This document shows, in pieces, positions 27,638 to 62,429 of a stretch of 64,000 nucleotides of DNA; position 1 is the first letter of the stretch, and each line of letters opens with the position of its first letter. This DNA comes from Gemmatimonadota bacterium (GTDB lineage Bacteria; Gemmatimonadota; Gemmatimonadetes; Longimicrobiales; RSA9): the NCBI GenBank assembly GCA_007126035.1, contig SLCC01000066.1, forward strand, positions 1,104-65,103. The letters run 5' to 3'. Below the pieces are notes generated by a model that worked only from the letters and a program-made list of their open reading frames with translations, was not told the origin of the DNA and ran no database searches. The position numbers and the translations under genes were made by a program.

Positions 27638-27913
27638 GGCGCGGCCCCTGGCGGGGCCACGCAGGTGGGCTCGGCTTCGCCTCGCAGGGGGGCGCGGCCC
27701 TGGCGGGCCACGCATGTGGGCGCCCTTCGGGCGCAATGGCTCGGCTTCGCCTCGCAAGGGGGGCGCGGCCCTGGCGGGCCACGCATGTGGGCGCCCTTCG
27801 GGCGCAATGGCTCGGCTTCGCCTCGCAGGGGGGCGCGGCCCTGGCGGGCCACGCATGTGGGCGCCCTTCGGGCGCAATGGCTCCTCGGCTTCGCCTCTCA
27901 GGGAGGCGCGGCC
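27638..27913. repeat. Tandem array of a 70-73 bp GC-rich hairpin-bearing unit (one short, three full, one partial copy)
   Basis: Unit: GGCGCGGCCCTGGCGGGCCACGCATGTGGGCGCCCTTCGGGCGCAATGGCTCGGCTTCGCCTCGCAGGGG. Copy starts are 27638 (53 nt, internal 19-nt deletion), 27691, 27762, 27832 and 27905 (9 nt only). Periods are 71, 70 and 73 bp. Confidence 0.9.
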
Positions 27914-42835: not shown

Positions 42836-44044
42836 GTGGCGGGTGTGGCCATGCGCGCCCGCTTCTGGCCCGTGTGGTTGGCCCTTCTGGCCATCGCCGT
42901 CCTCGGATCTTATCTGCTCTATACAGAGCACCTGGTGAGGGAGCTCCGGACGGAGGCGGAAGTCCACCAGCGCATGTACGCCCTGGTCCAGCGTGGCCTG
43001 CTGTCCACCGAGCCCGGGGCGGAGTTGCAGGCGTTGACGGACCTGCAAGCGGAGTTGACCCGTCTGGGCGTGCCCATGGTGGCACTGAACGCTGACGGCG
43101 TCCCGTACGCCGCCGCCAACCTACCCTTCGAAGCGGACCTGGCCGTGGAGCGTGATCGCCAGCGGGTGCTCCGCTACGCCCAGGAGCTTGGCCAGAGGAG
43201 CCCGGTCATCGTGGAGGAGGAGGTGGGCGCAATCCACTTCGGCTTACCGCCCGTCATCGCCCGGCTCCGTTGGGCGGCCACCTTGCAGATAGCGGGCGCG
43301 CTGCTCCTGATCCTGGTCGGCTACGTGGTGGTCCGGGGCACGTTGCGGGCGGAGCGGGAGCGGATGTGGAGCGCCATGGCCAGGGAGCTGGCTCACCAGA
43401 TGGGTACGCCCCTCAGCTCGTTGCAAGGCTGGCACGAGGTTTTGCGTCTACCGGCCCAGGACCGGGCGGAGCTGGTATCGGACCGGCGGCTGGCCCGGGA
43501 GGTAGGCGCGGATGTGGACCGGCTCGAGCGGGTGTCACGCCGCTTCGAGATGATCGGCAAGCCGTCGCCCCTGTCGCCCGTCAGGCCCGAAGCGGTGATG
43601 CGCGAGCTCGAGGAGTACCTGAGGCCTCGCCTGCCCAGGGAGAAGCCGGGGGTGGAGCTGCGCGTGCGGGTCTCCGATGGGCTGCCCGACTTGAGAGCGA
43701 ACCAGGTCCTGCTGGTCTGGGCGCTGGAGAACTGTGTCAAGAATTCGCTGGACGCGCTGGCGGGACGTGGCGGCAGGATCCGGCTGGCGGCGCTGCCGGA
43801 TGTCAGGGGCGTATGCTTCGTAGTAACCGACGACGGGCCGGGCGTGGCCAGCAAGATAAGGGACCGGCTGTTCGAGCCGGGCGTGACCACGAAGGCCGGG
43901 GGCTGGGGCGTAGGCCTGTCCCTGGCGCGACGGATCGTCAAGGACGTGCATGGCGGCTCCATCGAGAGCCGCCGCCGCCCTGGCGGGGGCGCCAGGTTCG
44001 CACTGCGGATCCCGGTGGAGACAGGTGACCACGAACATGGCTGA
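42836..44044 (+). CDS. Sensor histidine kinase (two TM, HisKA-like, HATPase)
   Basis: GTG directly after the serS stop (alternative ATG 42851). H-box ARELAHQMGTPLSSL. ATPase boxes LENCVKNSLDA, TDDGPGV, GWGVGLSLARRIV. Confidence 0.8.
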   Translation: MAGVAMRARFWPVWLALLAIAVLGSYLLYTEHLVRELRTEAEVHQRMYALVQRGLLSTEPGAELQALTDLQAELTRLGVPMVALNADGVPYAAANLPFEADLAVERDRQRVLRYAQELGQRSPVIVEEEVGAIHFGLPPVIARLRWAATLQIAGALLLILVGYVVVRGTLRAERERMWSAMARELAHQMGTPLSSLQGWHEVLRLPAQDRAELVSDRRLAREVGADVDRLERVSRRFEMIGKPSPLSPVRPEAVMRELEEYLRPRLPREKPGVELRVRVSDGLPDLRANQVLLVWALENCVKNSLDALAGRGGRIRLAALPDVRGVCFVVTDDGPGVASKIRDRLFEPGVTTKAGGWGVGLSLARRIVKDVHGGSIESRRRPGGGARFALRIPVETGDHEHG

Positions 44045-48132: not shown

Positions 48133-49577
48133 GCGACAACGGCTTCGAAGCGGTCATCGGCCTCGAGATCCACGTCCAGCTCGGTACCGCCACGAAACTC
48201 TTCTGCGGCGACAGGTCCCAGTTCGGGTCGGCGCCCAACACCAACGTGTGTCCCGTCTGCCTCGGTCTGCCCGGCGCACTGCCCGTGACGAACGCAGCCG
48301 CTGTCGAGCTGGCGGTCAAGGCGGCCCTCGGCCTCCACTGCACGGTGCACCTCACCAGCGTCTTCGCCCGGAAACAGTACTTCTATCCCGACCTGCCCAA
48401 GGGCTACCAGATCTCCCAGTACGACCGCCCCCTGGCAACCGACGGCTGGCTCGAGCTGGTCGACGCCGCCGCGTCGCGCCGCAGGATACGGGTCCGGAGG
48501 ATCCACATCGAGGAAGACGCGGGCAAGCTGATACACGACCGGCTGCCCCGCCGCACCGCCATCGATCTCAACCGGGCCGGCGTGCCGCTGGTGGAGATCG
48601 TGACCGAGCCGGACCTGGCCAACCCCGCTGAGGCCCGGGCCGTCCTGGTCCGGCTCAAGCGGCTGCTCCAGTACCTCCAGGTCAGTGACTGCGACATGGA
48701 GAAGGGTAGCCTGCGGGTCGATGCCAATATCTCGCTCCGGCCACGAGGCGCCCGGACCCTGGGCACCAAGACCGAGATCAAGAACCTGAACTCCTTCAGC
48801 AACGTCGAGAGAGCACTCACCTCCGAGGCGGAGCGCCAGGCCGACCTGCTGGCCAGGGGAGGGGCCGTCACCCAGGAGACCCTCTTGTGGGACGCGCGGG
48901 CCGGCAGCGCCAGGGTCATGCGGAGCAAGGAGGAAAGCCACGACTACCGCTACTTCCCCGACCCGGACCTGCCGCCGCTCGTCCTCACGGCCCAGATGGT
49001 GGACCGGGTGAGACGGGACCTGCCAGAGCTGCCCGAGGCCCGGGAGCGACGCTTCCGCACCGAATACGAGATCCCCGGCTACGACGCCGACGTCCTCACC
49101 GCCGACCGGGACGTGGCCGACTACTTCGAAGCAGTGGCCCGGGACTGTGGAGATCCCAAGGCGGCCAGCAACTGGGTCATGACAGAGGTCCTGGCGTGGG
49201 CCAACGAGCAGGGCGCTCCAGTGAGCGCGTTCCCCGTGCCGCCTCCGCGCCTGGCCCAGCTGATCGAGCTGATCGCTGATGGCACCCTGAGCAACCGGCT
49301 GGCCCGTCAGGTGCTGACCCGGATGATGACGACCGCTGAACCGCCGCGCGCCATCGTGGAGGCGGCGGGCCTGGCCAGCGTCGGCGACCCGGACCAGCTG
49401 GAGGCCTGGGTCGCGGAGGTGGTCGATGCCCACCCGGAAGAGGCGGCCCGGTTCAGGGAAGGGGAAGCGAAACTGTTGTCGTTCTTCATGGGCCGGATCA
49501 TGAAGGCTTCGAGCGGGAAGGCCGAACCGCGGCAAACTGCGGAGCTGCTCCGCAGCCGTCTGCTGGCAGACCACTGA
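48129..49577 (+). CDS. gatB: Asp/Glu-tRNA amidotransferase subunit B
   Basis: Start trimmed to ATG 48129 (ATGA overlap with gatA). FEAVIGLEIHVQL, YFYPDLPKGYQISQ, EEDAGKLIH. Confidence 0.95.
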   Translation: MSDNGFEAVIGLEIHVQLGTATKLFCGDRSQFGSAPNTNVCPVCLGLPGALPVTNAAAVELAVKAALGLHCTVHLTSVFARKQYFYPDLPKGYQISQYDRPLATDGWLELVDAAASRRRIRVRRIHIEEDAGKLIHDRLPRRTAIDLNRAGVPLVEIVTEPDLANPAEARAVLVRLKRLLQYLQVSDCDMEKGSLRVDANISLRPRGARTLGTKTEIKNLNSFSNVERALTSEAERQADLLARGGAVTQETLLWDARAGSARVMRSKEESHDYRYFPDPDLPPLVLTAQMVDRVRRDLPELPEARERRFRTEYEIPGYDADVLTADRDVADYFEAVARDCGDPKAASNWVMTEVLAWANEQGAPVSAFPVPPPRLAQLIELIADGTLSNRLARQVLTRMMTTAEPPRAIVEAAGLASVGDPDQLEAWVAEVVDAHPEEAARFREGEAKLLSFFMGRIMKASSGKAEPRQTAELLRSRLLADH

Positions 49578-50970: not shown

Positions 50971-51503
50971 CAGTCTTGTCCCGTCGGGTCGTTGTAGCGT
51001 CTGCGGACGGTCCGCAGGCGCGCGTCCTTCTCTTGCCGCAACGCCTGGGCCGCTGTCTGTGCTCCCCTGGCCATGGCGGCGGCATCCATGAGCAGGTCCT
51101 CCGCCTGGGCCTGTACCACCTCCAGCACCAGACCGAAGCGGCGGACCCGCTCCTCCAGGGAGCCCACGGCCCCCCTGCTCCTGTCCAGCAGGTCCTGTAC
51201 CGCCTCCTGCACGTCGTCGGCGTTGTCCCTGAATCCGGCGGTGATGTGGCCCACGTCGTCCGCGACGGTCGATGCCCTGTTCAAGACCGGCGTGACGTGG
51301 GGGATCAGCTGGTTCTTCGCCTCGTCGACCCGGTCCATGGCCCGACGCACGAGGAGGAGCACGGCCGCCGCGGCGACCAGCACGGCCAGGGCCGTAATGA
51401 CCATGACCACGGCCATCACGGTCTGGGCCCACATGATCCGCTCGAGCTGCGCTCCCAGCTCCGGCGGCGTTGCCTGCGCCAACATCCAGATGGTGGATCC
51501 CAC
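50970..51503 (-). CDS. DUF948-like membrane protein
   Basis: 177 aa. One TM (MAVVMVITALAVLVAAAAVLLLV), then a helical region. 1-nt overlap with the YtxH-like gene start. DUF948 and YtxH are a common pairing. Confidence 0.6.
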   Translation of the reverse strand: MGSTIWMLAQATPPELGAQLERIMWAQTVMAVVMVITALAVLVAAAAVLLLVRRAMDRVDEAKNQLIPHVTPVLNRASTVADDVGHITAGFRDNADDVQEAVQDLLDRSRGAVGSLEERVRRFGLVLEVVQAQAEDLLMDAAAMARGAQTAAQALRQEKDARLRTVRRRYNDPTGQD

Positions 51504-54346: not shown

Positions 54347-54835
54347 ATGGGCGAGCCATCGCAGGAGCAGGTAATCGAGCAGCGCCTGGCGGCGCTTGGC
54401 TTCGAGCTGGTCGAGCTCGAACGAGGAGGGACCAGGACGCGACCGGTCCTGCGGATACGTGCGGATCGACCGGACGCGGAGCCGGGGCAGGGGATCACCC
54501 TGGAGGATTGTGCGCGGATCAGCCGCTCCCTGGAGGAGTATCTGGATGCGCTGCCAGGGATGTCGGACCGGTATGTGCTGGAGGTCTCGTCTCCGGGGGT
54601 GGAGCGGCCGCTGGTACGGAGCCGGGACTTCGAGCGGTTCGCAGGGCACGACATCGCCCTCCGAGGGTACGGTCCCTTGGCAGGTCGTAGCCGACGGCTC
54701 GAGGGAGAGCTGCTGGGCCTGGCGCAGGGGCCGGACGGAGAGACCGTGCGGCTGCGGCTCAATGACGGAGAGGAAGTGGAGGTGCCTCGCGCAGAAATAG
54801 CGCGGGCTCACCTCGTGTTCCGCTGGAGCAACTGA
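54347..54835 (+). CDS. rimP: Ribosome maturation factor RimP
   Basis: LGFELVELERGGTRTRPVLRIRADRP..., LEVSSPGVERPL. 162 aa. Confidence 0.9.
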   Translation: MGEPSQEQVIEQRLAALGFELVELERGGTRTRPVLRIRADRPDAEPGQGITLEDCARISRSLEEYLDALPGMSDRYVLEVSSPGVERPLVRSRDFERFAGHDIALRGYGPLAGRSRRLEGELLGLAQGPDGETVRLRLNDGEEVEVPRAEIARAHLVFRWSN

Positions 54836-54842
54836 GGAGACT

Positions 54843-56294
54843 ATGGCTAACGAAGGGATGCAGGTGCTTGCGGCCTTCCGGGAGATGACGGCCAACAAGA
54901 ATCTCTCGGACGACGAATTGCACGATCTCATTCGTGACGGCATCATGGCCGCCCTCGCGAAGCGTTTCGGCCTCAATGTCGAGGCCGAGATCACCGTCGA
55001 CGAGGGCGGTGGCGGCATCCAGATCACCGTTCTGAAGGAAGTGGTGGAGGAGGTCGAGGACCCGTCCCGGGAGATATCCCTGGAGGAGGCGCGCTGGGAC
55101 GACCCCGACTTCGAGCCGGGGGATGTCATGGAGATCCCGGTATCGTTCGCCGAGTTCGGCCGGAACGCCGTGATGGCGGCAAAGCAGCGGATCATCCAGC
55201 GTGTCCGCGAAGGTGAGCGACAGAAGATTCGCGACGAGTTCGATGCCCGCGCCGGCGAGCTCCTGAGCGGCGAGGTCCAGCAGGTGGAGCGAGGTAAGCT
55301 CGTGCTCCTCATGAACGAGGCCCGTGATGCCGATGCCATCATCCCGTGGAAGGAGCAGAACCCGCGGGAGCGGTTCCGCCAGGGCGAGTCCATAAGGGCC
55401 GTGCTGAAGAAGGTGGAGGAGACGTCCAAAGGCCCGCGGCTCGTGCTCTCCAGGGCCGACCCGTTCTTCGTGGCAGCCCTGTTCAAGCTCGAGGTGCCGG
55501 AGATCCACCAGGGCATCGTTGAGATCAAAGGGATCGCCCGCGAAGTGGGCGGCCGCACCAAGGTGGCCGTCTCCTCGAGGGACGAGTCCATTGATCCCGT
55601 GGGCGCCTGCGTAGGGCTCAAAGGCGCTCGCGTGCAGGCAGTGGTGGGTGAACTCGGGGGCGAGCGAATCGATATCGTGCCCTGGCACCCGGACCCGGAG
55701 GTCTACGCCCGCCGCGCCCTGGCCCCCGCACGCGTTGCCAAGGTGCTGAGCGACGCGAGGCGGGGGGTGATCACCGCCATCGTGGACGAGGACCAGCTCT
55801 CCCTGGCCATCGGACGTAACGGTCAGAACGTCCGCCTGGCTAGCCAGTTGATCGGTTGGCAGCTCGACCTGTACGGTAGCCGGGAATGGCTCGAGAGAGG
55901 CGCAGACGCCGCCCTCTTCGGCAGGCCTGAAGAGGACGAGTACGACGGTGCCGACTTCCCCCTCACGGATCTGGAGCTGGATCCGGACACTCTGGCGGCG
56001 CTCGAAGGGGCCGGGTATACTACTTTTTTTGATATCATCGACCTCGATCGTGACGATTTCCTACGCATCGAAGGGGTCGACGAGCCGGTGGCCGAGCGGC
56101 TCGTCCAGGTCATCGACGAGCTGACGGAGGCAGAGGAGTCTGCCGCAGAGCAAGCGGAAGGCGGCGCATCGGCGGAAGAGATGGAAGAAGCGCGGCGTAT
56201 GGCCGCCGAGATCCTGGGCGTCGATGTCCAGGACCTGGACGACGGTGCCAAGACCGAGGAGCAGGAGACCGGAGAGCGGGAAGACGTCGCCTGA
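54843..56294 (+). CDS. nusA: Transcription termination/antitermination factor NusA
   Basis: S1 and KH regions (GRNGQNVRLASQLIGWQLDL, DPVGACVGLKGARVQ). Acidic C-terminal extension. Confidence 0.95.
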   Translation: MANEGMQVLAAFREMTANKNLSDDELHDLIRDGIMAALAKRFGLNVEAEITVDEGGGGIQITVLKEVVEEVEDPSREISLEEARWDDPDFEPGDVMEIPVSFAEFGRNAVMAAKQRIIQRVREGERQKIRDEFDARAGELLSGEVQQVERGKLVLLMNEARDADAIIPWKEQNPRERFRQGESIRAVLKKVEETSKGPRLVLSRADPFFVAALFKLEVPEIHQGIVEIKGIAREVGGRTKVAVSSRDESIDPVGACVGLKGARVQAVVGELGGERIDIVPWHPDPEVYARRALAPARVAKVLSDARRGVITAIVDEDQLSLAIGRNGQNVRLASQLIGWQLDLYGSREWLERGADAALFGRPEEDEYDGADFPLTDLELDPDTLAALEGAGYTTFFDIIDLDRDDFLRIEGVDEPVAERLVQVIDELTEAEESAAEQAEGGASAEEMEEARRMAAEILGVDVQDLDDGAKTEEQETGEREDVA

Positions 56295-56307
56295 TCACGC
56301 GCTCCAG

Positions 56308-56595
56308 CTGTTGGGACTCGCGGCGCGCGCAGGCGCCGTGGTCCCCGGGACCGAGCGGGTCCGGGAGGCGGTCCGGGCAGGAAGGGTCCACTACGCCCTC
56401 GTGGCGGCAGACCTCACGGCCACGGGCAGGGACAAGTTGGTCCCGCTGCTCGAGGGCCGGGAGGTTTCTTATAGTGTGGGGTATACCCGAGCGGATCTGG
56501 GCCGAGCAGTCGGTCGAGCCCCGCTAGCGGCGGTGGCGTTGACCGATGAAGGCTTTGCTCGTCGGCTGGAGGCGCTGTTGGCCACCGGCGGATGA
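56308..56595 (+). CDS. L7Ae/L30e-family RNA-binding protein (YlxQ-like)
   Basis: LLGLAARAGAVVPGTERVREAVRAGRVHYALVAADL...GRAPLAAVALTD. The ORF-track start 56224 overlaps nusA. I place the start at CTG/TTG 56308-56313, but the exact position is uncertain. Confidence 0.6.
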   Translation: MLGLAARAGAVVPGTERVREAVRAGRVHYALVAADLTATGRDKLVPLLEGREVSYSVGYTRADLGRAVGRAPLAAVALTDEGFARRLEALLATGG

Positions 56596-56631
56596 TGGCA
56601 CAGTGGGAACAGGGGAGATTGCAGGAAAAGC

Positions 56632-57819
56632 ATGCGCGTTTACGAAGTAGCGAAAGAGTTCGACGTTCCAGCGGACCAGATGATCCAGCTCCTGCGGGAG
56701 ATGGGCGAGGCGGTGCGTTCGGAGGCCTCCCCGGTCAATGACTCGGCCGTAGCCAAGCTGCGGGCCCGGTTCGAGCGTCACCGGCGGGCCGGCACTACCG
56801 ATGTGTCCGAGGTGGTCGAGGCCGCTATCGAGGATGCGCAGGTGCCGGTGCGTCGCCGTCGCCGTCGTCGCCGGACAGAAATGCCCGAAGCCGAGGCGGA
56901 GGCTGGCGCGGCCGGGCTGGAGGCCGGGCTGGAGGCCGGGCTGGAGGCCGAGCCGGCGGAAGGTCCGGAGCCGGAGGTGGCGGAGCCGGAGGTGGCCGCT
57001 GAGGCGCCGGCGCGGCCCGAGCCGACAGAAGCGGAAGAAGTCGTCGCAGAGCCGGTAGTCCCGGAAGATGACCAGGCGCCTGCGGCCGAAGAGGTCGAAG
57101 TGGAAGAGGCGGAGGAAGCGGAAGCGCCTGCCGTCGAGGCCGTGGTGGCAGAGGAGGAGGCGGAGGCGGAAGAACCGGCGGCACCCGCTGAGGCGGAGGC
57201 GGTGGCAGAGGAGGCGGCGGAGGCGGAAGACGTCGCGGTCGACGAGGATGTGGTCGAGGCTGAGGTGGTCGAGGCTGAGGAGGTCGAGGCTGAGGTGGTC
57301 GAGGAAGAGGCTTTGGAAGCGCCAGCGCCCCGACCTCCTCACGCCGAGCCCGTGGAGCCGGTGGCGGAGGAGGACCAGGAGGAGCTTGCTGCGGCCGCCC
57401 CGGACGTGGACGCCGGGGAGGCGGACCAGGAGCGGGCCAAGGAGCGACGCGAGAAGCCGAAGCGCCGGCCGAAGCGGGCCTCGGAGGGCATGCCCGGCCT
57501 GGCGCCGGCAGCGAGCGCCGGCCCGGGAGGCAAGGTCCGGATCCAGGCGGAAGGGTATACGCCGGACGGCCGCCCGCGACGGGACAAGAAGAAGAAGCGT
57601 CGGCAACGTGTGGACCAGGGCGCTGTGCAGGAGAATGTCCAGCGCGTCATGGCGGAGATCCAGGCGGGCACCGGCGGCCGGAAGCGGCGCAGGTCTCGCC
57701 ACGATTCCGAGTCCCGCCAGCAGGAGGCGGCGGAGCGCGAGCGGCGAGCAGTGGAGGAGGCGACCACCGTGAGGGTCAACGAGTTCCTCACGGTCGCCGA
57801 GCTGGCGGAGTTGGTCTAG
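56632..57819 (+). CDS. infB: Translation initiation factor IF-2, N-terminal part (ends at in-frame TAG 57817-57819)
   Basis: IF2_N motif MRVYEVAKEFDVPADQMIQLLREMG. Long acidic A/E/V/P low-complexity region, then a K/R-rich segment. Ends ...VRVNEFLTVAELAELV-TAG in the middle of the second IF2_N-type segment. Confidence 0.9.
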   Translation: MRVYEVAKEFDVPADQMIQLLREMGEAVRSEASPVNDSAVAKLRARFERHRRAGTTDVSEVVEAAIEDAQVPVRRRRRRRRTEMPEAEAEAGAAGLEAGLEAGLEAEPAEGPEPEVAEPEVAAEAPARPEPTEAEEVVAEPVVPEDDQAPAAEEVEVEEAEEAEAPAVEAVVAEEEAEAEEPAAPAEAEAVAEEAAEAEDVAVDEDVVEAEVVEAEEVEAEVVEEEALEAPAPRPPHAEPVEPVAEEDQEELAAAAPDVDAGEADQERAKERREKPKRRPKRASEGMPGLAPAASAGPGGKVRIQAEGYTPDGRPRRDKKKKRRQRVDQGAVQENVQRVMAEIQAGTGGRKRRRSRHDSESRQQEAAERERRAVEEATTVRVNEFLTVAELAELV

Positions 57820-57864
57820 GAGGACGCGACTGAGATCATCGCTAGCGCCTTCAAGAACCTTGGC

Positions 57865-59550
57865 ATGATGGTAACCATCAACCAGCGGCTGGACTTCGAC
57901 CAGATCGAGCTGTTGCTGGATGAGTTCGGCTACAAGGCCGTGCGGGAAGAGGAGTACGAAGGTCTGGAGGAGGAGGAACAGGAAGAGGAGCCGGCGGAGA
58001 ACCTGTTGTCCCGACCTCCTGTCGTCACCGTCATGGGTCACGTGGACCACGGAAAGACGTCCCTGCTGGACTACATCCGCAAGACGAACGTGATCGCCGG
58101 TGAGGCGGGTGGGATCACCCAGCATATCGGTGCCTACCACGTCACGCTGGACGACGGGCGGGCCATGAGCTTCCTGGACACGCCAGGCCACGCGGCGTTC
58201 ACCGCCATGCGGGCCCGCGGCGCCGATGTCACGGACGTGGTTATCCTGGTCGTGGCCGCCGACGATTCGGTGATGCCCCAGACGATTGAAGCCATCAGTC
58301 ACGCCAGGAATGCCGGCGTACCTATCGTGGTTGCCATCAACAAGATGGACCTACCCGGCGCGGACCCGGAGCGGGTCAAGCGCGAGCTGCTCGAGCACCA
58401 GGTGGTGGTCGAGGAGTACGGCGGCGACGTCCTGTCCCAGCCGGTGAGCGCCAAGGCCGGCGAAGGTATCGACGAACTGCTCGAGAAGGTCCTGCTCCAG
58501 GCGGAGATGCTGGACGTGAAGGCCAACCCCAACCGGGAGGCCCAGGGGATCGTCATCGAAGCAGAGCTCGACGTCGGGAAGGGTCCAGTGGCTACCGTCC
58601 TGGTGGTCACCGGGACCCTGCGTGTCGGTGACCACCTGGTCTGTGGCCTCCAGAGCGGCCGCGTCCGAGCACTGCTGGACGAGCGAGGCAAGAGCATCTC
58701 GGAGGCGGGGCCGGCCACGCCGGCTCAGGTCCTGGGCATCAGTGGCGTGCCGCAGGCAGGTGACAAGCTGATGGTCATGGACGCCGTCCGGGCGCAGGAG
58801 ATCGTGCAGACCCGCCAGCGGCTCGAGCGGGAGAAGAAGCTGCGTATCAGAGACCGTGGCGTGAAGCTCACGGATATCAGCCAGCTCCTGGCCGCGGGCG
58901 AGACGGCGCAGTTGAACGTGGTGATCAAGGGTGACGTGGACGGGTCGGTCCAGGCTCTCTCGGACTCGCTGGAGCAGCTTTCCACCAATGAGGTGGAGGT
59001 GAAGGTGATCCACCGCGGCGTGGGCGCCATCAACCGGTCCGACGCCCTGCTGGCGGCCACATCGAGCGCGATCATCATCGGGTTCCACGTCCGCCCAGAC
59101 GCCGACGCCCGGCAGGTGGCGGAGCAGGAAGGCGTGGATATCCGGCTGTACGACGTGATCTACGAGGCCATCGAGGACGTGCGCGCCGCGCTGGAGGGAC
59201 TGTTGGCCCCGGATGAGAGGGAGATCCTGCTGGGTGCGGCGGAAGTCCGACAGCTCTTCAAGGTGCCCAGGGTGGGGACCGTGGCCGGTTGTTACGTCAC
59301 GGAAGGGGTCATGCGGCGCAACGACCCCGTCCGCCTGGTCCGCGACGGCGTGCAGATCTACCGGGGCAACCTGGGCAGTCTCAAGCGCTTCAAGGACGAT
59401 GTGCGAGAGGTGCGCGAGGGGTTCGAGTGCGGCATGAACATCGACGGGTACAATGACGTGAAGGTCGGCGATGTGATCGAGTGCTTCACCATCGAGCAGG
59501 TGGCCCGGACACTGGCCAGCAGCGCGGGCGGCCGGACCGGCAACCAGTAA
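57865..59550 (+). CDS. infB: Translation initiation factor IF-2, G-domain and C-terminal core (same frame as 56632-57819; homology resumes right after the TAG at 57820)
   Basis: Codons 57820-57864 read EDATEIIASAFKNLG, then [18 protein letters not shown]1 [22 protein letters not shown]-terminal [12 protein letters not shown]. Confidence 0.9.
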
Positions 59551-59569
59551 CGGACCCGGTGGTGCGCCT

Positions 59570-59851
59570 GTGGTGATCGGGGTCATCCGCTGGGAGATCC
59601 AGGTCTACGAAGCCCAATCCCTCAAGGCGAAGCGCGCCGTGGTCCGCAGCCTGAAGGACCGGCTGCGGTCGCGCCTCAACGTGTCGGTGGCCGAGACAGG
59701 TTCCCACGACCTGTGGCAGAAGGCTGAGCTCAGCGCCTGTGCCCTGGCCGCCGACCGCCGGCAACTGGACTCGATCCTGGACAACGCTGACCGCCTCGTG
59801 GAGTCCGAGGTACGGGGCAGGATAATGGGTACGGACCGCATCTACTACTGA
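59570..59851 (+). CDS. DUF503-domain protein (YlxP-like)
   Basis: VIGVIRWEIQVYEAQSLKAKRAVVRSLKDRLRSRLNVSVAE. Conserved position between infB and rbfA. Confidence 0.8.
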   Translation: MVIGVIRWEIQVYEAQSLKAKRAVVRSLKDRLRSRLNVSVAETGSHDLWQKAELSACALAADRRQLDSILDNADRLVESEVRGRIMGTDRIYY

Positions 59852-59887
59852 GGCGGCGGCGCCGGGCCGACGCCGCACGATAGGATA

Positions 59888-60250
59888 ATGGCAGGGAAAC
59901 GGATCGACCGGATCAACGAGCAACTGCGACGCGAGCTGTCCCAGATCGTGGTTGGGGAAGTGCGGGACCCGAGGGTGGGGCCCCTGACAGTGACCCGGGT
60001 GACCACCGCCCCCGACCTCACCCTGGCCAAGGTCTACGTCCAGCTGGTGGGAGACGATGAGGAGCGGAAGGAGACCCTGGCGGGGCTCCGTGCCGCGACC
60101 CCCTTCATACGGACGGCGCTGGGTCAACGCGTGCCCATGCGCCGCGTGCCCGAGCTCCGTTTCGAGCCGGACCGGAACCTGGAGCACGCGCTGCGGATCG
60201 AGGAGTTGCTCAGGGACGTTGAGGCAGGGGACGAGGACAGGGAGGAATGA
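59888..60250 (+). CDS. rbfA: Ribosome-binding factor A
   Basis: RIDRINEQLRRELSQIVVGEVRDPRVG...VPELRFEPD. Confidence 0.9.
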   Translation: MAGKRIDRINEQLRRELSQIVVGEVRDPRVGPLTVTRVTTAPDLTLAKVYVQLVGDDEERKETLAGLRAATPFIRTALGQRVPMRRVPELRFEPDRNLEHALRIEELLRDVEAGDEDREE

Positions 60251-61110
60251 ACGGCGTTCTCCCCGTCGACAAGCCTGAGGGACCCACCTCCCACGATATC
60301 GTGGCCCGCGCCAGGCGCGGCCTGGGCATTCGTCGGGTCGGCCATACCGGCACCCTGGACCCTTTCGCCAGCGGGCTGCTCCTCCTCTGCGTCGGCCCGG
60401 CCACGCGTTTGGCTCAGTACCTGGTGGGGCTGGACAAGGCCTACGAGGCCACTGCCAGGCTGGGCACCTGGACCGATACGCTGGACCGGACCGGCAAGGT
60501 CATCGACAGCACCGGCGCCTGGGCCGACCTGAGCCCGGATCAGATCAGGGCCGCTTTCGAAGGGCAGGTGGGCCAGCGACAACAGAGACCGCCCGCCTAC
60601 TCGGCCAAGAAGGTGGGCGGCAGGCGCGCCTACGAACTCGCGCGCGGCGGTGAGACAGTGGATCTGGCGCCCATCGAGGTGGAGATCGAGCAGCTCCAGG
60701 TGCTGAACATCCGGGGGCCTGACGTGAGCTTTCGCCTCCGCTGCTCGAGCGGGACCTATGTGCGGTCCGTGGCTGCCGACGCCGGCGAGGCGCTGGGGGT
60801 GGGCGCCTATCTGACGAGGTTGCGCCGGACCGCCGTGGGCTCCGTCAGCATCGACGCAGCGTTGCCCGCAGACCAGCTCTCGGAACGCGACGCCGCAGCC
60901 CATCGGCTCATCGCGCCACTGGAGGCGCTGGACCATATGCCCGTCGTGGAGCTGGCGGCGGACGAGGTGCCTCGGATCAGGCACGGCCAGGGAGTCCCCA
61001 ACCTGGGGCGGGCCCCGGAGGGGCTGGTCGCATTGGCCCGCGACCGCTCGCTGGTGGCCGTGGCGGAGGCCACCGACCAGGTGCTCCGGCCGCGGAGGGT
61101 GTTGGCTTGA
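60247..61110 (+). CDS. truB: tRNA pseudouridine(55) synthase
   Basis: NGVLPVDKPEGPTSHDIV, VGHTGTLDPFASGLL (catalytic Asp), PPAYSAKKVGGRRAYELAR. Confidence 0.95.
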   Translation: MNGVLPVDKPEGPTSHDIVARARRGLGIRRVGHTGTLDPFASGLLLLCVGPATRLAQYLVGLDKAYEATARLGTWTDTLDRTGKVIDSTGAWADLSPDQIRAAFEGQVGQRQQRPPAYSAKKVGGRRAYELARGGETVDLAPIEVEIEQLQVLNIRGPDVSFRLRCSSGTYVRSVAADAGEALGVGAYLTRLRRTAVGSVSIDAALPADQLSERDAAAHRLIAPLEALDHMPVVELAADEVPRIRHGQGVPNLGRAPEGLVALARDRSLVAVAEATDQVLRPRRVLA

Positions 61111-62060
61111 CACAGGTCATCGATCCGGGACTGGCGCCAGGGCTACCGCCCCACCATCCCGGTACCGTGCTCACCGTCGGCACCTTCGATGGCGTGCACC
61201 GCGGCCACTGGGAGGTCCTTGCCGCGGTCAGGGAAAGAGCCGACAGGGTTCAGCTGCCTGCCGTCCTCGTCACCTTCCACCCCCACCCCCTGCGCGTCGT
61301 CAGACCCGACCAGGCGCCCAGGCTCCTGACCACACCGGTGGAGAAGAAGGAGATACTCGCCGAATCCGGGCTCGACTACGCTGTGTTCCTGCCCTTCAGC
61401 AGAGCACTGCGCGAGTATCAGCCGAGACGGTTCGTCCAGGAGATCCTGATCGGTCGCCTCCGCATGAAGCACCTGGTGATCGGGTACGACCACGGCTTCG
61501 GTCACGGGCGCTCCGGCGATGCCGAGACCCTCAGGAGGATCGGCATGGACCTGGGTTTCCAGGTCCACGTGGTGGGCGCGCTCCGGACCGATGGCTCCGC
61601 CATCTCATCGAGCCGTATCCGCAACGCGCTCCTGGAAGGAAAGGTCAACGAGGCAGCCGTGGCCCTGGGCAGGCCGTACTCCCTTCGCGGGCCCGTCATG
61701 AGAGGCGATGGACGGGGTCGGTCCCTCGGCTTCCCCACTGCGAACATCCACGTGCCGGAAGACGACAAGCTGCTGCCCCTGGAAGGCGTCTACGCCGTCA
61801 CCGGCACCTGCCGGAGCGGGGTGTTCAGAGGTGTGCTCCACCTGGGACCCAGACCCATGTTCCACGGCTCCCCGCCCTCCGTGGAGCTCCACCTCTTCGG
61901 ATTCGAGGATGACCTCTATGGCGAAGAGGTACGGGTCGACTTCTGCGCCAGGCTCAGGGACATCCACAGGTTCGCCACCGTCGACGAGCTGATCGCAGCC
62001 ATCCGGACCGACTGCCAGCGGGCGAGGGACCTGTTCGAGCACGGCGATTCAGCATGTTGA
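61107..62060 (+). CDS. ribF: Bifunctional riboflavin kinase / FMN adenylyltransferase
   Basis: TVGTFDGVHRGH, SSSRIR, GRSLGFPTANI, ...HLFGFEDDLYGEEV. TTG start overlaps the truB stop; its position is uncertain. Confidence 0.9.
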   Translation: MTQVIDPGLAPGLPPHHPGTVLTVGTFDGVHRGHWEVLAAVRERADRVQLPAVLVTFHPHPLRVVRPDQAPRLLTTPVEKKEILAESGLDYAVFLPFSRALREYQPRRFVQEILIGRLRMKHLVIGYDHGFGHGRSGDAETLRRIGMDLGFQVHVVGALRTDGSAISSSRIRNALLEGKVNEAAVALGRPYSLRGPVMRGDGRGRSLGFPTANIHVPEDDKLLPLEGVYAVTGTCRSGVFRGVLHLGPRPMFHGSPPSVELHLFGFEDDLYGEEVRVDFCARLRDIHRFATVDELIAAIRTDCQRARDLFEHGDSAC

Positions 62061-62168
62061 CGGCGGCGCACTTGTGCGAGCGTTGGAGTTTCGATACAGT
62101 TATCGATTGTGGTCAAATCAGGAAGTCCGCTTCCCGATCAGCGTAGACTCTCGCGGAGGCACCGAGGT

Positions 62169-62429
62169 ATGATTACCGACAAAGAAGACGTCATCAAGAA
62201 GTACCAACTCCACCCCGAAGACCGGGGTAGCGCGCAGGTCCAGATCGCGATCCTGACGGCGCGCATCAATCACCTCACCGATCATTTCCGGTCACACAAG
62301 AAGGATCATCACAGCCGTCGCGGCCTGCTCAAGATGGTAGGCCGGCGTCGTCGTCTGCTGGATTACCTGCGGCGCACGGATGTGGAGCGTTACCGCGAAC
62401 TGATTCAGGACCTCGGTCTGCGGCACTAG
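62169..62429 (+). CDS. rpsO: 30S ribosomal protein S15
   Basis: Start trimmed to ATG 62169. [48 protein letters not shown]. Confidence 0.95.

Follow-up and report, generated by a model that had tools for sequence, protein, structure and literature searches.

infB and its genomic context

The infB gene, encoding translation initiation factor IF2, lies on the plus strand of the window, which is the 64-kb stretch of DNA (G+C content, 68%) analyzed in this study. It is found within the conserved rimP-nusA-infB-rbfA-truB-rpsO operon context, which occupies positions 54347 to 62427 of the plus strand. The genes surrounding infB were assigned from gene calls and Pfam matches on a near-identical contig (L081) and mapped to the window. 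The genes are as follows.

54347-54835, plus strand: rimP
54843-56294, plus strand: nusA
56632-59550, plus strand: infB (translation initiation factor IF2; translation; Pfam), 972 codons including one internal TAG
59570-59851, plus strand: DUF503
59888-60250, plus strand: rbfA
60247-61110, plus strand: truB
61107-62060, plus strand: ribF
62169-62427, plus strand: rpsO

The 337-nt spacer between nusA and infB (positions 56295 to 56631) is without a called gene in this population, and an ORF of 123 amino acids (positions 56224 to 56595) is present in the window around this spacer. In a relative, L188, a gene of the Ribosomal_L7Ae family (ylxQ-like) is placed between nusA and infB.

An in-frame TAG interrupts infB within a conserved domain

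Translation of positions 56632 to 59550 revealed a sole internal stop codon, an in-frame TAG at codon 396, where the window reads GAG TTG GTC TAG GAG GAC GCG ACT (positions 57808 to 57831). When this TAG is read through, a normal IF2 of 972 codons is obtained. The relevant features of the gene are listed below.

56632-57819, plus strand: upstream ORF, 395 aa, carrying the first IF2_N domain, an acidic low-complexity linker, a basic region and the start of the second IF2_N domain (12 residues)
56910-56950, plus strand: 12-nt tandem repeat GGCCGGGCTGGA, translated as (A)GLEA units within the acidic linker; 3.4 units in the window
57781-57936, plus strand: second IF2_N domain (residues 384-435; Pfam, with X at the stop), broken by the stop
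57817-57819, plus strand: in-frame TAG, codon 396; T at base 57817, where 4/4 other assemblies spanning the position have G (GAG, Glu)
57818-57823, plus strand: AGGAGG, Shine-Dalgarno (SD)-like by sequence only, 42-47 nt upstream of ATG 57865
57865-59550, plus strand: downstream ORF, 561 aa (P0076, called on the 129,389-bp NCBI source contig), carrying the last half of IF2_N, the G domain and the C-terminal domains

A Pfam search of the read-through protein, with X at the stop, yielded two IF2_N matches followed by GTP_EFTU, EF-G_D2, IF-2 and GTP_EFTU_D2. The protein thus carries the domain set of a bacterial IF2, namely IF2_N, a GTPase with the P-loop GHVDHGKT, an EF-G_D2-like domain, an IF-2 domain and a C-terminal beta-barrel, and its best PDB matches are the IF2 proteins of E. 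coli and Pseudomonas (E = 7e-69 and 9e-67). With X at the stop, the second IF2_N domain was recovered as a single continuous Pfam match spanning the TAG. The C-terminal ORF alone keeps only the last 24 positions of the IF2_N profile, scoring 21.2 bits versus the cut-off of 25.3. In an alignment to PDB 3jcj chain f (residues counted by hand), the stop and the first Met after it correspond to approximately residues 326 and 341 of E. coli IF2, respectively. Chance is no concern in this case, as the subject is a single codon within an unmistakable IF2 gene.

These results are in agreement with the first-pass annotation of this DNA, which had described: a TAG interrupting infB inside a conserved domain, as borne out by the translation and the Pfam IF2_N match; two ORFs sharing one frame, as seen in both the ORF list and the translation; a seamless continuation of IF2 across the TAG, with IF2_N matching as one domain; and the ATG codons at 57865 and 57868 as the first in-frame starts past the stop, which remains so when ATG, GTG and TTG are all considered. 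It had also stated that a start at ATG 57865 would drop about half of the domain, and the 24 profile positions retained by the C-terminal ORF are consistent with this.

Other assemblies of the same population carry GAG at this position

Sister contigs were retrieved by exact-protein look-ups with neighboring genes and were aligned to the window by blastn. Four independent assemblies of the same population, approximately 99.98% identical to the window, span position 57817:

ENA ERZ27301261, contig k141_1412995, 146 kb (locus id L087): GAG at the site
ENA ERZ27301262, contig k141_1440268, 82 kb (locus ids L081, L082 and L100): GAG at the site
Logan SRR16248217, contig SRR16248217_47977 (locus ids L083 and L101): GAG at the site
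Logan SRR13089372, contig SRR13089372_116319, a contig also seen in a second sample (L102): GAG at the site

All four carry GAG (Glu), and in all of them infB was called as one intact gene, either 968 or 972 aa in length. Over the 6.7 kb between positions 56922 and 63676, the G-to-T difference at 57817 is the sole difference of the window from L101 and L102, and the IF2 of the window is 100% identical to the 972-aa IF2 of Logan SRR16248217, the stop codon aside. The observation named at first pass as refuting, an independent assembly with a sense codon one substitution away from TAG, was thus made four times. T is present in the window only, one substitution from the GAG of the sister assemblies, as would be the case for an assembly-private error or a sporadic allele. 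A scan of JGI metagenomes for an exact 30-mer pattern with N at the variable base gave no match. The difference is a clean substitution, and a frameshift or indel origin of the stop is thereby ruled out.

The TAG is absent from IF2 homologues

The closest relatives of the window's IF2 are labelled Gemmatimonadota or Longimicrobiales. The first-pass annotation had also suggested aligning infB of relatives at the stop. In 118 of the best 120 IF2 homologues the motif could be located, and all 118 are uninterrupted, with lengths of 711 to 1013 aa (the 711-aa homologue looks partial). Opposite the stop, nearly all of them have Asp, and a few have Glu, Gly, Lys, Asn or Gln; none has a stop. At the DNA level, the codon is GAC (Asp) in the relatives L188 and L001, and the visible path thus leads from GAC in relatives to GAG in this species and to TAG in the window only. 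When GTDB genomes and JGI metagenomes were scanned with protein seeds, the matches listed were mostly distant IF2 proteins, with L001 and L002 being useful.

The only short IF2 among the best 120 homologues is P0076 (561 aa), the window's own downstream ORF. Its sole cluster-mate at 90%, P0121, is an intact IF2 of 968 aa, which differs from the read-through protein of the window only by Glu at the stop and by one GLEA repeat fewer.

Other differences between the window and its sister assemblies

Approximately 60 kb of the window (positions 1181 to 34116 and 36651 to 64000) was compared with the sister assemblies. Besides the stop, three other candidate private substitutions of the window were detected, along with one indel:

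26073: candidate private substitution, I39T in signal peptidase
43093: candidate private substitution, synonymous transition
54995: candidate private substitution, synonymous transition in nusA
28736: 1-nt intergenic homopolymer indel approximately 40 nt upstream of rplM, TT in the window and TTT in ERZ27301262, the only assembly compared here

At position 51266 (I80V), the C allele of the window is common to the window and a Logan contig from SRR7083931. A second gene-breaking difference was looked for in the ~60 kb compared, and none was found; with no further disrupted gene in this region, a generally error-prone assembly is ruled out.

The population is nearly clonal over at least 8 sequencing datasets, with about 20 segregating substitutions in ~60 kb, some synonymous and others conservative. 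The datasets holding this population are ERZ27301261/2, SRR16248217-9, SRR13089370/2/3, SRR7083928/31 and GCA_007120925.1.

Origin of the internal TAG

The TAG is most probably a base error in the assembly consensus, or else a rare or recent deleterious allele picked by the assembler. The change from GAG (Glu-396) to TAG is one G-to-T base difference that is private to the window assembly, and infB of the population is an ordinary, uninterrupted gene of 968 or 972 codons. By this explanation, no recoding, split architecture or special internal start would be needed. A sequencing error or a population variant had been among the explanations offered at first pass, and it is the one favored by the GAG codon of the four independent assemblies. 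The allele is private and absent from relatives, and a single step separates it from a sense codon; the TAG is neither conserved nor programmed. We infer that it represents an error or a minority allele rather than the dominant genotype of a viable strain. In this infB, a random substitution produces a stop codon about 3% of the time, so one stop among a few private differences is unremarkable for an error; as a variant that had passed through selection in an essential single-copy gene, a stop would be very unlikely.

There are counterpoints to the error explanation. Substitution errors are rare in short-read consensus sequences, which counts against it. The private synonymous transitions at 43093 and 54995 look like genuine strain divergence, so the window assembly seems to represent a slightly distinct genotype, and the T at 57817 could belong to that genotype. 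In addition, judging from E. coli, a truncated IF2 starting near the stop is probably viable if expressed (PMC12919033).

The case resembles the "internal stop" pseudogene calls of draft genomes and MAGs, in that a single-base change affects an otherwise perfectly conserved, essential single-copy gene and independent assemblies of this population lack the TAG. A difference is that the window has no other gene-breaking change, so its assembly is not generally error-prone. The main relevance is one of quality control: infB should be annotated as intact with base 57817 flagged as suspect, or else listed as a pseudogene call specific to the strain. The TAG in infB provides no evidence for recoding or for a split initiation factor.

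Could the nonsense allele be real and tolerated?

A second explanation is that the TAG is a real nonsense allele, dominant in the strain and tolerated, with termination at the TAG and some restart of translation 45 nt downstream at AUG 57865 or 57868. The products would be a 561-aa IF2 without the N-terminal region and a free 395-aa acidic N-terminal fragment. We regard this as unlikely. The other private, synonymous-looking variants are in its favor, as they point to a distinct genotype. In E. coli, IF2 without residues 1-294 or without residues 1-387 is reported to support growth, about 50% slower in the case of 1-387 (PMC12919033, preprint); a product of restart would start at about residue 341 in E. 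coli numbering, which lies between both truncations. As these truncations support growth, the 561-aa IF2 is probably functional if made. In bacteria, ribosomes commonly reinitiate after termination (PMC5972666), and, as in translational restart after nonsense codons, a start codon in the same frame is present past the premature stop. However, production of the engineered E. coli truncations was driven by a plasmid promoter and a proper start site, whereas expression here would need an SD-less restart; unlike established restart cases, the one considered here is putative only and not selected for, and the allele is private.

The sequence around the candidate start argues against an efficient restart. 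None of the motifs GGAG, GAGG and AGGA is present within 20 nt upstream (including -18 to -6) of ATG 57865 or 57868, as compared to an SD core at 13 of the 26 gene starts checked in the window. For a factor that is both essential and abundant, restart would thus be inefficient. The first-pass annotation had pointed to AGGAGG as an SD-like box overlapping the TAG. The motif is indeed there, but an SD role for it did not stand: the six bases form part of two Glu codons, so that the intact GAG allele (GAG GAG) has the same box, and they lie 42 to 47 nt from the ATG. The usual SD-to-start spacing is 5 to 10 nt. AGGAGG as a newly created SD is ruled out on both grounds. Moreover, the MM dipeptide at 57865 is merely part of a conserved G-[LM]-M-V-T-I-N-Q motif and no dedicated start. 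The allele's absence from the four other assemblies also speaks against a tolerated nonsense allele, and a strong fitness cost would be expected.

Less likely again is a natural Gemmatimonadota strain that has infB E396amber as its dominant genotype. It would live either on the 561-aa IF2 from SD-independent restart or on full-length protein made by suppression, and the acidic N-terminal part of 395 aa would be released separately. If such a strain existed, it would be the equivalent in the environment of the engineered E. coli strains with N-terminally truncated IF2. An allele that was both real and dominant would offer a modest natural confirmation, outside the laboratory, that the N-terminal region of IF2 is dispensable, and it would show an essential gene being sustained by restart over a long range.

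Possible read-through, suppression or reassignment of TAG

It is very improbable that a real TAG is usefully decoded as sense, either by a CUA-anticodon suppressor tRNA encoded elsewhere or by context-dependent read-through, to give full-length IF2. The perfectly conserved flanks and the intact reading frame would fit such decoding, and an in-frame TAG in a conserved protein is also what stop-codon reassignment and programmed read-through (amber suppression, pyrrolysine) have in common with this locus. Unlike in those systems, TAG is a normal terminator here: it ends approximately 9 to 10 of about 55 credible genes in the window, including rpsI, rpsB, tsf, rpsO and aroA. In rpsI it comes right after ...RFQFSKR, the canonical C-terminus of S9, and in rpsO right after ...LGLRH, the canonical C-terminus of S15. 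The absence of a global reassignment, as noted at first pass, is thus confirmed, and reassignment of TAG is ruled out by these and the other genes (tsf and aroA among them) that it terminates at canonical C-termini.

Scans of the 64-kb window found no tRNA and no match to an Rfam family. The RNA fold of positions 57790 to 57910 is not distinctive (z = -1.8; 11 of 200 shuffles fold as well). A programmed read-through or recoding site would have a conserved stop, and sense codons are present at this position in the 118 homologues (Asp in most, Glu in a few) and the 4 sister assemblies. The suggestion of low-level read-through or suppression, made at first pass, thus drew no support from the non-conserved stop, from the tRNA scan of the 64-kb window or from the local RNA fold.

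A proposed programmed split of IF2

That IF2 is programmed to be made as two polypeptides, as a lineage feature analogous to the IF2 alpha, beta and gamma isoforms, has the bare presence of two in-frame ORFs to recommend it, and is refuted to near certainty by the uninterrupted infB of the sister assemblies and 118 homologues and by the fact that the only short IF2 cluster, P0076, is the window's own ORF, with P0121 intact as its cluster-mate. E. coli IF2 alpha, beta and gamma arise by internal in-frame initiation in infB. As with these isoforms (mentioned in PMC12919033), an N-terminally shortened IF2 would result from the same gene. In E. coli, however, infB is an intact ORF whose internal starts are located far upstream of the G1/IF2_N subdomain, whereas here the stop breaks the ORF, the candidate start falls within a folded domain and has no SD, and the arrangement is not conserved. 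A start of the IF2-beta/gamma type would be an internal start with a ribosome-binding site in an intact ORF; here the ORF is interrupted and an SD core is lacking. The genuinely split IF2 envisaged at first pass is therefore not supported, as no other split IF2 was seen among the best 120 homologues and ATG 57865 has no SD core within 20 nt.

Repeat variation and a possible junction

The copy number of the GGCCGGGCTGGA repeat is polymorphic, with the window and SRR16248217 having one unit more than the ENA assemblies. One unit more or fewer accounts for the 972-aa versus the 968-aa IF2. Several Logan contigs end exactly at this repeat (positions 56910 to 56950).

A second tandem repeat, with a 70-nt unit in 3.5 copies that are 96% identical, occupies positions 27668 to 27913. 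It is G+C-rich with internal palindromes and is intergenic, sitting between a sigma-70 gene and a gene with a CarboxypepD_reg domain (minus strand). Its copy number appears to vary within the population, as alignments suggest about one unit fewer in ERZ27301262.

At the gatA/gatB junction (window positions approximately 48147 to 48430), contig k141_1440268 of ERZ27301262 (L081, positions 1 to 1726) is 99.9% identical to the window on the right and only about 68% identical on the left (gatA). This break reflects either recombination at this point or an assembly chimera of two related genomes. L088, another contig of this sample, has a ragged end at the same junction, and the arrangement of the window there is backed by L087 and L089 to L091.
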